The position numbers and the translations under genes are program-made. A DNA stretch of 64,000 nt from Thioploca sp. (GTDB lineage Bacteria; Pseudomonadota; Gammaproteobacteria; Beggiatoales; Beggiatoaceae): NCBI GenBank assembly GCA_030627125.1, contig DAOUSR010000001.1, positions 14,784 to 78,783 on the forward strand, given 5' to 3'. The notes below the pieces were generated by a model. The model ran no database searches, was not told the DNA's origin, and saw only the letters and a program-made list of their open reading frames with translations. Positions within the stretch are counted from its first letter, which is position 1. Each line of letters opens with the position of its first letter. Shown piece after piece: positions 7,931 through 46,087 of the stretch.

Positions 7931-8824
7931 ATGTTCCAAAAAATATTAATGTTACTTTTAGCAGCTTTAAGCATTACTACGCATGCTACCAGTTTTTACT
8001 GTGATAAAGCAAACTTTGACTTGGAAAAAGTTATTTGCAATGACATGCTGCTCAATGAAGTAGATGAACAAATGGGAAAAGCCTATCTTAATTTGCGTAA
8101 ATTGCTTCCAAAAGATGCAACAACCCAATTAAAAATAGATCAACTTGCTTGGTTAAAACAACGTTCCCAATTTTGTCCATCTCATGATGCAGACTGTTTA
8201 ATCCGATTTTATCAAGCCCATATTAGTTATTTAAAATCACAACAATGTTCCAATTTACAAACAGCTATTAATTCAGCTTTGAAAGATACTGTGATTGAAC
8301 TTGAGGAAATAATTTGTCATTACAAAGATAGTTTGCAGATTAAAAATAAGGAACATCTAACAATTGAAGGCCAAGGAGATGTTTGGATTATCGTTGATAA
8401 TATTTATACTGATGTAATAAAAATACAAAATTCGCAACGGATATTTCTCAAGAATATCAAAGCTCGTCATCAAAAACCCCTAGATAATTTTAATTGTGAA
8501 GGTGCTGTAGTCAATATTATTAATTCTAATTATATTTGGCTCAATAGTTGCGAGCTTAATGGTTCTGGTGCTGTCGGAGTGCAAGCTGAGAAATCTACCA
8601 ATATTATCGTTAATCAATGTTACATACACCACAATACTTTAGCAGCATTTTGGTTAGATAATAGCGATTCCATAGCAATTCACGATAATACAATTACCGA
8701 AAATGGTTCGACAATTTATGGACTTACAGCTGGAAATATCAGAATGACTAATAATATTATTGGTAATAATAAGGGTAGCTTTACTTGGTCGTCTCCATTT
8801 ACTAGAGAAATTATGGGAGAATAA
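7931..8824 (+). CDS. Secreted LprI (DUF1311)-like domain plus right-handed beta-helix protein
   Basis: Signal peptide from M at 7931; SFYCDKA..LEKVIC...QLAWLKQRSQFC..DCL matches the LprI pattern; C-terminal I.NS..I...C..N beta-helix repeats. Confidence 0.7.
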   Translation: MFQKILMLLLAALSITTHATSFYCDKANFDLEKVICNDMLLNEVDEQMGKAYLNLRKLLPKDATTQLKIDQLAWLKQRSQFCPSHDADCLIRFYQAHISYLKSQQCSNLQTAINSALKDTVIELEEIICHYKDSLQIKNKEHLTIEGQGDVWIIVDNIYTDVIKIQNSQRIFLKNIKARHQKPLDNFNCEGAVVNIINSNYIWLNSCELNGSGAVGVQAEKSTNIIVNQCYIHHNTLAAFWLDNSDSIAIHDNTITENGSTIYGLTAGNIRMTNNIIGNNKGSFTWSSPFTREIMGE

Positions 8825-42967: not shown

Positions 42968-43246
42968 CTATGAAACAGTTTTTTTCTGTTTTTTACTATA
43001 ATCTTCAATAGCTGATTTAACCGCAGATTCAGCCAAAACACTGCAATGAATTTTTACTGGTGGTAAGGCTAACTCTTCAGCGATTTCAGTATTTTTGATT
43101 GCTGCTGCTTCTTCCAATGTTTTACCCTTTACCCATTCAGTGAGTAAGGAGCTAGAAGCTATGGCAGAACCACAACCATAAGTTTTAAATTTTGCATCTT
43201 CAATAATACCGTCAGCTCCAACTTTAATTTGAAGCCGCATTACATC
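42968..43246 (-). CDS. iscU: Fe-S scaffold IscU, exon 2 (Asp39 to stop)
   Basis: DVMRLQIKV..FKTYGCGSAIASSS..LPPVKIHCS. Confidence 0.95.
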   Translation of the reverse strand, partial: DVMRLQIKVGADGIIEDAKFKTYGCGSAIASSSLLTEWVKGKTLEEAAAIKNTEIAEELALPPVKIHCSVLAESAVKSAIEDYSKKQKKTVS

Positions 43247-44261
43247 CGTTCTGTTACTTTATATGACCTAACTTTAAAATTAGGCGAGCCATTATTTCTA
43301 ATGACTTCTACATGTCTCCATGCAGTTCGGACTATGTCTTCATCTTAACAGGAATTCAAGATTTATCTTGATAATCAAACTAAAGTTTGGACTCCAAATA
43401 AAATGTTCTGCGTATTAGTCTCTGAGGGGGCAACCACGCCTTCCCTGCAAATTGTCTCTATTTGTAAAATTTTCACTAAGGTTAACACTATAGCTATTTT
43501 TTAAAATATAACGAATACTGAAATAATTTGTGTTAAACTTTTCAGCAATTTGGTTCAGTGACCAATCATTGAGATATAAATAATAGATTTCACTGTAAAA
43601 TGGTTTTAAATTTTGCTGTTTTAATACGAGATATTTATGATCAAGCCATTTATACTCGAAACATTTAATTGGACAGTCACCCATATAATCAAAAAATGCG
43701 ATCATATCTTTTTTAGGTATTCTTAATCGGTTATTTTTCTGAATAGTACAATTTATTTCAATGCTTTTCATTAATTTTTTTAAATATTCAACTTCATGTT
43801 TAGTAAAAGCATCTGTACATAAAACCAAAATGGCACTATTGCGATTAATCGAACAACAACCATCACCTAAAAACCAATGGAGTAAAAATTCTTTGGATAC
43901 AATTAAATTTTGCGGTACTACTTTCCGACCATTTTTATACCAACGTTCCCTTAATTTTAAAAAAATTGGATGCTGTAAAGTGCGTAACTCAGAACATTCA
44001 TAGATTTTCCCAGTACGTTTATCCGGTTTTCTGGTTCGGATTTTGATTCTATTTTCTTCTATACCTAGCTGGTTTGCAATATATACCACATATTCATGAT
44101 TTTTACTGGTCTGTGATATATAAAACATACCTTCACGAGTAATATAAGCATCACTAATAATGAGTCCATCTAGAATTTGTTTCTGTGTTTGGTTAAACAT
44201 TAGTATCTACAACCTAGCGAGAGTTCCTTGCATATAGCAAAATTACGTGGCAATGTTATTT
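43247..44261 (-). ncRNA. Group I self-splicing intron in iscU
   Basis: Exon 1 ends in U and the intron ends in G; P1 with U-G wobble; P10; P3, P4 and P7 pairings; R (TCAGAGACTA) and S (AAGACATAGTCC) elements; GNRA-capped P9 hairpins. Confidence 0.93.
43415..44200 (-). CDS. Intron-encoded double-motif LAGLIDADG homing endonuclease with a C-terminal HTH-like segment
   Basis: ILDGLIISDAYI and LLHWFLGDGCC motifs; WSLNQIAEKFN. Confidence 0.85.
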   Translation of the reverse strand: MFNQTQKQILDGLIISDAYITREGMFYISQTSKNHEYVVYIANQLGIEENRIKIRTRKPDKRTGKIYECSELRTLQHPIFLKLRERWYKNGRKVVPQNLIVSKEFLLHWFLGDGCCSINRNSAILVLCTDAFTKHEVEYLKKLMKSIEINCTIQKNNRLRIPKKDMIAFFDYMGDCPIKCFEYKWLDHKYLVLKQQNLKPFYSEIYYLYLNDWSLNQIAEKFNTNYFSIRYILKNSYSVNLSENFTNRDNLQGRRGCPLRD

Positions 44262-44375
44262 ACCACAGGCTGGTGCACCAACCATTCCGGTTCCTACTGA
44301 AGAATCCTCTTTATCCAAATTACCAACATTACGTGGTTCATTATAATGATCCAATACTTTCTCTGAGTATGCCAT
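44262..44375 (-). CDS. iscU: Fe-S scaffold IscU, exon 1 (Met1-Gly38)
   Basis: Manual translation: MAYSEKVLDHYNEPRNVGNLDKEDSSVGTGMVGAPACG. Confidence 0.95.
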
Positions 44376-44411: not shown

Positions 44412-45626
44412 TCAATGAGAATCCCACTGAATACTATTTAAATCGATTCCATCTTTATACATTTCCCACAAAGGAGATAAATTCCGTAATTTGGTGATGT
44501 TAGCACGAATTAACGGAATAGCGTAGTCGATCTCTTCCTCTGTAGTAAAACGTCCCAACGTAAATCGAAGCGAACTATGAGCCAATTCATCATTACGTCC
44601 TATAGCTCGCAATACATAAGAAGGCTCTAAACTAGCTGAAGTACAAGCTGAACCGCTGGAAACTGCTAAATCTTTGAGTGCCATCATTAAAGATTCACCT
44701 TCCACAAAATTAAAACTTAGATTCAAATTACCAGCAATTCGTTGTTCTGCATCTCCATTTAGATAAACTTCCTCCATGTCTTGCAAACCATTTAACAACT
44801 TATCCCGTAATTTTTTTACCCGAGCATTTTCTGTTAACATTTCCTCCTTCGCAATCCGAAAAGCCTCTCCCATTCCTGCGATTTGATGAGTAGGCAAAGT
44901 ACCAGACCTCATGCCACGTTCATGACCACCACCGTGCATTTGAGCTTCTAAACGTACTCTGGGTTTACGTCGTACATATAAAGCTCCTATACCTTTGGGG
45001 CCGTATACCTTATGGGCGGAAAAAGACATTAAATCAACTTGCATTATTGCTAAATCAATCGGCACTTTACCAGCACTTTGGGCCGCATCTACATGAAACA
45101 AAACTTTATGAGAGCGAGTTATTTCACCAATGGCAGCAATATCCGCAATAACACCCATTTCATTATTAACATGCATTATACTAACTAAAATTGTGTCATC
45201 CCGAATAGCAGCTTCCAACTCAGTCAAATCAACCAGTCCATTAGATTGTGGATTTAAATAAGTAATTTCAAAACCTTCTCGTTCCAGTTGCCGACAGGTA
45301 TCCAACACTGCTTTATGCTCTGTCATACTGGTGATTATGTGTTTACCTTTTTTTTGGTAAAAATGAGCTATTCCTTTAATGGCTAAATTATCAGCTTCAG
45401 TAGCCCCAGAAGTCCACGCAATCTCTTTAGAATCAGCATTAATTAAAGCTGCTACATGTTCTCTGGCTTCATCTATTGCCTTTTCAGCATCCCACCCAAA
45501 TTTATGCGATCTTGAAGCTGGATTACCAAAATGACCCTCTGGAGTTAAATATTGCATCATTTTTTCTGCAACCCGAGGATCGACTGGGGTAGTTGCCGAA
45601 TAATCTAGGTAAATAGGTAAATTCAT
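44412..45626 (-). CDS. iscS: Cysteine desulfurase
   Basis: [33 protein letters not shown]. Confidence 0.97.
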
Positions 45627-45679: not shown

Positions 45680-46087
45680 TTAGATATGATTTTTAATAAT
45701 TTGAGCTAAGGTAATACCACTTAAAAAATCACAAATTTGCTTACTCAAATCAGTCCATAATTGATGAGTTACACAAATTTGAGTATCATGGCAATTTTTT
45801 TCACCATTACATCGAGTTGCATCAATACATTCATCAACTGCTGTAATAATCTGAGCAATGGTAATCTCTGAAGGTTGATGGCTTAGGCTATAACCTCCAT
45901 TTGGGCCACGAGTACTATTAACTAAATCATGTCTACGTAGTTTAGTAAATAATTGTTCCAAATAAGATAAAGAAATACCTTGGCGTTGGGAAATATCAGT
46001 CAATTTAACTGGTTTTTGGTTCTTATTGTTAAGTGCTAAGTCCAACATTGCCATTACAGCATACCGTCCTTTGGTAGATAATTTCAT
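45680..46087 (-). CDS. iscR: Fe-S cluster assembly regulator (Rrf2 family)
   Basis: MKLSTKGRYAV, ISLSYLEQLF, RC...NC....CVTH ligands. Confidence 0.93.
   Translation of the reverse strand: MKLSTKGRYAVMAMLDLALNNKNQKPVKLTDISQRQGISLSYLEQLFTKLRRHDLVNSTRGPNGGYSLSHQPSEITIAQIITAVDECIDATRCNGEKNCHDTQICVTHQLWTDLSKQICDFLSGITLAQIIKNHI

Follow-up and report, generated by a model that had tools for sequence, protein, structure and literature searches.

The iscU gene of the genome analysed here (G000, Thioploca sp., estimated to be 84.9% complete) is split by a 1015-nt insert which belongs to, and works like, group I introns. It is located between Gly38 and Asp39, beside the cluster-binding Cys37, and the cell likely has to splice iscU since RNA contigs of a near-identical strain join both halves exactly. 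A selfish homing intron residing in a needed gene is the best reading of the data: very probably, the intron is removed by ribozyme splicing, giving rise to a 130-residue IscU, and spreads by homing via a predicted LAGLIDADG endonuclease.

The window, i.e. the whole stretch of 64,000 nt that was analysed, carries iscR, iscS and iscU in a row on its minus strand:

44262..44375, minus strand: iscU exon 1, Met1 to Gly38 (38 codons), with the ligand Cys37; its last base is the U of the GGT codon
42968..43246, minus strand: iscU exon 2, Asp39 to the stop (92 codons plus stop), with Cys63, LPPVK, His105 and Cys106
43247..44261, minus strand: group I intron of 1015 nt with omega-G (43247) as its last base, assigned by RF00028, covariation and the exact 1015-nt skip in RNA runs X16 and X19
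44412..45626, minus strand: iscS (PF00266), upstream of iscU and in the same direction
45680..46087, minus strand: iscR-type Rrf2 regulator (PF02082)

The sequence-only reading of this DNA had placed exon 1 at 44375-44262, ending in GAPACG and followed by AAA TAA, and had let exon 2 resume with Asp39 at 43246-42968. Both the coordinates and the reading proved right, and the joined exons indeed encode 130 amino acids with zero internal stops, the two halves covering positions 1-35 and 36-126 of the Pfam NifU_N profile. Cys37, Asp39, Cys63, His105 and Cys106 are residues which we take to form the Fe-S ligand site, the numbering used here agreeing by count, and LPPVK is presumably the HscA site. 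A tblastn search with each exon against G000 (84.9% complete) revealed no further locus and no other NifU_N gene; the iscU at this locus is the sole one found in that genome. The isc genes of G000 are split, iscR-iscS-iscU being located at window positions 46087-42968 and iscA-hscB on a different contig (L174).

Within the insert and its flanks the following elements of a group I ribozyme were assigned:

44246..44267, minus strand: P1, 44267-44262 pairing with 44251-44246, where U.G marks the 5' splice site; all 6 pairs (100%) form in each of the 10 copies
44256-44252 with 43246-43242, minus strand: P10, formed in 10 of 10 copies
44242-44237 with 43411-43406, minus strand: P3
44232-44227 with 43451-43446, minus strand: P4
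43422-43416 with 43334-43329, minus strand: P7, its 5' strand with the G-binding site
44202..44242, minus strand: 5' strands of P3, P4, P5, P5a and P5b (P2 absent)
43406..43477, minus strand: 3' strands of P5b, P5a, P5 and P4, then P6, P6a, the 5' strand of P7 and the 3' strand of P3; compensatory pairs in P5a, P6 and P6a
43247..43340, minus strand: J8/7, 3' strand of P7, P9 (GAGA loop), P9.1 (GAAA loop), P9.2 and omega-G; compensatory pairs in P9, P9.1 and P9.2

All elements claimed beforehand (P1, P10, P3, P4, P7, the GAGA- and GAAA-capped P9 and P9.1, omega-G at 43247) lie where they had been put; absent from that earlier list were P5, P5a, P5b, P6, P6a, P8 and P9.2, the LAGLIDADG ORF and the hairpin repeat in P8. 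The P1 loop contains the in-frame TAA (44258-44256) together with the P10 strand at 44256-44252. The intron possesses neither P2 nor P7.1, and its P5a/P5b shows an A-rich bulge; by subgroup rules, these features together give it an IB-like look.

The structure was derived from an alignment of 10 copies, namely that of the window, six from host-family genomes and three from metagenome contigs. In all of them the P3-P7 pseudoknot with its G-binding site, the P4-P6 domain, P8 and P9 are formed, the first intron bases are invariant, and both the U.G pair in P1 and the terminal G are present (10/10 each). Over 71 pairs, 99.2% of the cells are paired and 10 pairs are changed on both sides. The observed covariation was matched by 0 of 500 shuffles, and slid controls were only 34-42% paired, both controls being inflated by the relatedness of the copies and by the use of these very sequences to draw the structure. 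The two-sided changes are confined to P5a, P6, P6a, P9, P9.1 and P9.2; P3, P4, P5, P7 and P10 are nearly invariant in the 10 copies and hence yield no covariation signal. The covariance model RF00028, a check proposed along with the first reading, matches the insert at 43516-43308 with 50.5 bits (E 1.7e-11, E-value mode), which is barely above the gathering cut-off of 50, and the 5' part of this alignment overlaps the endonuclease tail and is without meaning. Default gathering-mode Rfam scans missed the endonuclease-bearing intron. Eight of nine sibling copies score above the cut-off (52.5 to 77.7 bits), and the search of the remaining one, L098, gave no match. The group I identity and the splice sites are thus supported by the covariance model, by covariation and by the exact junction in RNA-library contigs.

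Three other classes of element were considered for the 1015-nt insert and rejected. An IStron needs an IS200/IS605 transposase or TnpB in its 3' part, and the sole long ORF is of the LAGLIDADG type, the insert being present in one genomic copy. An intein is at odds with the in-frame TAA after Lys, and no Hint family is found among the Pfam matches. For a group II intron, no group II family appeared in the covariance-model scan.

Splicing was examined in 8 of 22 listed sequencing runs by means of contigs only, which drop rare variants. The exact exon junction, with 1015 nt skipped, is present in two of three RNA-library runs compared to none of three DNA runs, the latter containing an intron version that lacks the endonuclease. 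In RNA run X19 a 276-nt contig joins 43246 to 44262 without any mismatch, with 75 nt on its short side; in RNA run X16 a 60-nt contig does the same, again without mismatch, and an intron-containing contig occurs alongside. In the third RNA run, X13, the intron is present and the exon junction was not found. The DNA runs X7, X9 and X10, which stem from other samples than the RNA runs and have a depth of 3-7, contain the intron path, and the exon junction was not found in them. In X7 a single intron-bearing contig of 1253 nt spans both splice sites; this run additionally contains an intronless iscU from another organism, which is different in 57 letters. Run X4, which may be DNA, holds the endonuclease-bearing form of the window and no joint, and X5 has no contig across either splice site. 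Contig depths and an adapter end at 44255 in X19 were excluded from the evidence.

The strain in the RNA runs is near-identical to the window, except that 32 nt stand in place of 699 nt of the endonuclease and that an intein begins at Cys63. The start of this intein, a strain marker, is found both in the joined contig of X19 and in the X7 contig that bears the intron. Compared with the 60-nt junction, intronless iscU alleles of the same genus show 7-10 differing positions. The protein P0060, encoded on a contig of unclear kind, equals the joined residues 1-62 of the window exactly and then runs into an intein; it represents either spliced mRNA or an intronless allele. The junction in the RNA contigs, too, could come from a co-occurring intronless allele of that endonuclease-less strain. 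The junction search in RNA data, which had been suggested as a check, accordingly returned the exact joint in X16 and X19 from an endonuclease-less, near-identical strain, and the claim that IscU production depends on splicing is supported by this RNA junction together with the finding of no other NifU_N gene in the 84.9% complete G000.

About three quarters of the insert, i.e. about 780 of its 1015 nt, are taken up by an intact ORF, and P8 contains a repeat:

43415..44200, minus strand: ORF of a predicted two-motif LAGLIDADG homing endonuclease, 261 aa, in loop L5b (PF03161, E 2.7e-24)
43351..43395, minus strand: dispersed, MITE-like hairpin repeat of 45 nt inside P8, occurring genome-wide in G000

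The ATG of the ORF is located at the end of the 5' strand of P5b, its final roughly 20 codons overlap the segment from P5a' to P7, and its stop (43417-43415) lies within P7. By sequence and modelled fold its product is a LAGLIDADG protein, for which homing endonuclease activity is predicted. A profile built from 40 homologues matches I-SceI (E 3.3e-10), and the structure model (pLDDT 88.8) has I-SceI (E 7e-11 by fold) and I-WcaI as its top fold matches. Among the 40 aligned endonucleases Asp17 is invariant and Asp113 is found in at least 90%. A database search yielded 51 matches, 41 of which constitute a close family of 45-100% identity; two members of this family carry the name Blastocatellia. 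The 40 aligned homologues, at identities of 45-84%, run through the same ribozyme core, mostly in another frame, and are therefore intron-borne. In the viral contigs and plasmids searched no relative of either the endonuclease or the ribozyme core was found, and phage proteins reach just 26-27% identity to the endonuclease.

The P8 repeat gave 55 blastn matches in G000 at E<=1, self included; matches with paired arms number 13 in G000 versus 0 in the reversed genome. Many BLAST matches of the intron over G000 were rejected as further introns, these matches being the hairpin repeat. The same repeat is present in the dsrA intron L177 of the host family, at window positions 48088-48034, at many other places in G000, and in L044, L042 and L027. 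In sibling introns it sits in P9.1 and L5b, and in G011 it occurs in tandem after iscU. Long unrelated insertions in P8 of about 330 nt (L055:1362-1955) and about 85 nt (L051:1008-1401) indicate that this loop tolerates cargo.

The survey of relatives covered 55 host-family genomes, 51 of them with a NifU_N match. Seven of the 55 carry the Gly38 intron; among the 51, iscU is interrupted by an intron in 11 and by an intein in 1. In all 11 intron carriers, the seven with the Gly38 intron included, NifU_N matches nothing but the two halves. G013 and G068, both with the Gly38 intron, are 99% complete and lack a second such match. The SUF core was detected in one of the 55 genomes, which is not G000. 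Within the same genus, iscU is uninterrupted in five of five genomes. Relatives thus have both intron-plus and intron-minus alleles, and the host does belong to the same family as the large sulfur bacteria. As to the sequence-only reading as a whole, its group I assignment and splicing hold, and it was incomplete with regard to the endonuclease, the six other carrier genomes and the further sites in iscU.

Codon 38 is GGT in all carriers, compared to 9 of 22 intronless host-family alleles, which fits the requirement of P1. Among the intronless alleles of the same genus, one has GGT and four have GGA at this codon. A scan of 185,579 species, one genome each, for a break after GAPACG produced 10 matches, six of them true and four rejected as chance matches outside iscU; the pattern is restricted to a GAPACG motif that includes a GGT codon, other iscU types being invisible to it. 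The six true matches are not independent since their intron lengths equal those of the six host-family copies. One carrier of the iscU intron is L037 (Ca. Thiomargarita nelsonii Hydrate Ridge), and the metagenome scan revealed at least three loci with the Gly38 intron among the 122 loci listed. In G068 a match to a group II intron domain begins shortly after iscU (L045:1573-1633).

The full endonuclease is confined to one of the 55 host-family genomes. In G056 it is decayed and invaded by repeats, and in five other carriers it is reduced to its first codons or gone. The ribozyme is intact in the endonuclease-less copies, including those of all four genomes of genus g43. The resulting pattern is patchy: empty sites occur beside introns with an intact, decayed or deleted endonuclease. 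An IscS tree was built from 30 rows (27 host-family and 3 outgroup; four candidates without iscS in the locus were omitted). On it the carriers require four changes, and a single clade is rejected (p-AU 0.0008); only three branches of this tree are strongly supported, and gains are indistinguishable from losses. The dead remnant in G056 shows 90% identity to G000 over 31 and 32 nt, while the exons of these genomes differ at 15 of 24 four-fold sites; as BLAST had selected the two stretches, this evidence is moderate.

An alternative to homing would be a single early entry followed by vertical descent and repeated exact loss, the ORF of G000 being a relic or a maturase instead of an active homing enzyme. 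We consider this unlikely. Distant genera share near-identical introns although, of the 24-27 four-fold sites compared in their exons, 15-18 are different, and many losses would be required among the intronless genomes, even if the change count on the tree is independent of the root. That the C-terminal tail of the endonuclease reads the core in another frame than most homologues do would suit this alternative; yet endonuclease-less copies are spliced and so need no maturase, and both motif aspartates have been retained.

The Gly38 site is one of several at which iscU is interrupted. A second group I intron, scoring 82-92 bits with RF00028, was found in four genomes between Pro101 and Val102 within LPPVK:

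L026, L027, L048 and L049 (genomes G014, G011, G059 and G060): Pro101|Val102 intron, measuring 264 and 278 nt in L026 and L027, with U at the exon end and G at the intron end

A third group I intron starts in the Ser65 codon on a metagenome contig (L140:1-128, minus strand) and ends at the contig edge; the same gene holds the Gly38 intron. In one host-family genome, G052, a 343-aa intein precedes Cys63 of IscU (L047:1105-2133). The search with this intein retrieved 50 proteins, which by pattern comprise 45 with an intein before Cys63 and six before Cys37. The IscU intein proteins (P0057-P0103) form a widespread family that includes Alphaproteobacteria. P0059 starts in the 3' end of the Gly38 intron and carries the Cys63 intein; therefore, both elements occur in one gene. 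The Cys63 insertion in runs X7, X9, X13, X16 and X19 was tried as another intron and rejected, since translation of its ends gives intein termini, which match G052 and P0059/P0060. In total, the 390-nt gene has five insertion sites, which coincide with or adjoin Cys37, Asp39, Cys63 and the LPPVK/His105/Cys106 region. Self-splicing elements have entered iscU at no fewer than five independent places around its Fe-S ligands, which shows the gene to be a hot-spot that had gone unrecognised.

Some further observations concern the host family. In L028 (G015) an assembly gap falls exactly on LPPVKIHC of iscU, the place of the Pro101 intron elsewhere, possibly owing to a mixed population. G000 has group I introns in tRNA-Leu(UAA) (C53:10237-10483, L001) and tRNA-Arg(UCU) (C48, near 8300-8600), and introns in these two tRNA genes are known for the family from the part of PMC4853749 consulted. 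A P7 motif scan of G000 was powerless (24 matches versus 32 in the reversed genome), only the iscU intron and the two tRNA introns being recognisable in it. In L188 (G056 C333) dsrA has two RF00028 matches, with repeat insertions in the interrupting sequence.

In the mechanism we propose, the TAA in the P1 loop would halt the ribosome and thereby let the ribozyme core fold, an exogenous G would attack at the U.G pair, and P10 together with omega-G would set the 3' splice site. The predicted endonuclease would cut intronless iscU near Cys37-Asp39, and repair would copy the intron. With its in-frame stop behind exon 1, the intron agrees with the ribosome-stalling idea put forward in the consulted portion of PMC3984707, and selfish elements prefer conserved sites according to the excerpt of PMC2814812 at hand. 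The intron presumably persists because its site encodes Fe-S ligands, so that only exact loss is tolerated, and because the host family seems to lack SUF as a back-up. This reasoning would also account for the other introns and inteins at the ligand motifs of iscU.

Instead of being merely tolerated, the intron could be kept, or iscU repeatedly invaded, for a splicing-based control of Fe-S assembly by metal, redox state or temperature, with the Cys37 and Cys63 inteins as parallel sensors. Five insertion sites by the ligands of so small a gene and a ribozyme that remains intact after endonuclease loss, all four g43 genomes included, would agree with such control, as would the precedents of a temperature-dependent flagellin intron (PMC4853749, in part) and of the SufB intein as a stress sensor (PMC4760082, in part). 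An intron in any needed gene, however, would persist after endonuclease loss, and close relatives manage without, given 11 introns and 1 intein in 51 genomes. Moreover, no aptamer-like conserved insertion is seen; P8, L5b and P9.1 vary freely and gather repeats. We therefore regard host control as improbable. Equally doubtful is a combination of hot-spot and control, by which in some strains with two elements RNA and protein splicing would gate the sole scaffold and make cluster assembly metal- or redox-responsive in sulfidic, low-oxygen habitats. That the insert remains unspliced here, iscU being a dead gene and the scaffold coming from a gene missing in the 84.9% complete assembly, is highly improbable, for although X4 (the exact window form, which might be RNA) lacks the joint and the joint elsewhere could stem from an intronless allele as in P0060, every carrier has intact, conserved copies of both exons, the 99%-complete G013 and G068 included, the core is complete and covaries, and SUF was not found.

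Ordinary selfish homing thus best describes the mechanism; what is new is the gene invaded, along with the family of the endonuclease and the hot-spot. The kind of element is already known, and a protein-gene group I intron of the host family is in print. In the part of Flood et al. 2016 (PMC4853749) consulted, a group IA2 intron is described in dsrA of Ca. Thiomargarita nelsonii, likewise a core metabolic protein gene in the same family, and like the iscU intron it carries a genome-wide hairpin repeat, which fits the intron-MITE of that paper. It differs in host gene, in ribozyme lineage, in having no endonuclease and in that splicing is undemonstrated there; iscU and NifU are never mentioned in the consulted portions of that paper and its supplements. 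The introns in recA, nrdE and nrdF of Bacillus, in cyanobacterial nrdE and in flagellin of thermophilic bacilli, as treated in the consulted sections of Hausner et al. 2014 (PMC3984707), likewise occupy conserved sites, have an in-frame stop just past the upstream exon and optionally an endonuclease in a peripheral loop. From these the iscU intron is distinguished by its Fe-S scaffold host and by a two-motif LAGLIDADG enzyme in place of GIY-YIG or HNH.

The closest ribozyme in 50,697 phage records is the nrdE intron of Lactococcus phages LW81 and P1048, with 84-85% identity over 73 nt (P5'-P4'-P6-P7-P3'), which differs in its phage nrdE host and in an endonuclease of another type located in P8. 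This phage intron is unannotated (L172, L173), and L173 has a second RF00028 match downstream. With I-SceI and I-WcaI (PDB 1r7m, 3oor, 6x1j), fungal mitochondrial intron enzymes, the modelled endonuclease shares the monomeric two-motif LAGLIDADG fold (TM 0.59-0.62, 25-27% identity), but it appears to have an extra three-helix C-terminal part (model residues 199-237), and its target is a predicted one. The intein in SufB of Mycobacterium tuberculosis, as far as the consulted part of PMC4760082 goes, is likewise a self-splicing element that interrupts a scaffold gene of Fe-S assembly; it differs by protein splicing and the SUF pathway, and parallels the IscU inteins of relatives, not the iscU intron. 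Within the literature searched, which lies apart from the 42,459-intron database of PMC11835236, no report of an intron or intein in iscU or NifU was found, and term look-ups in the accessible portions of PMC4853749, PMC4914600, PMC8612568 and PMC4760082 gave none.

Few bacterial chromosomal protein genes are known to contain group I introns, which are rare there; the ISC scaffold now joins them. In the carrier genomes iscU is miscalled, and the endonuclease-bearing copy escapes default Rfam filters. A further gain is a family of I-SceI-like endonucleases which is uncharacterised and has a predicted target. The joined iscU exons are backed by environmental RNA in a family with SUF in 1 of 55 genomes, and one small gene displays every stage of the homing cycle as well as introns and inteins competing for conserved sites close to each other; whether the elements are selfish or regulatory can accordingly be tested in E. 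coli iscU mutants.
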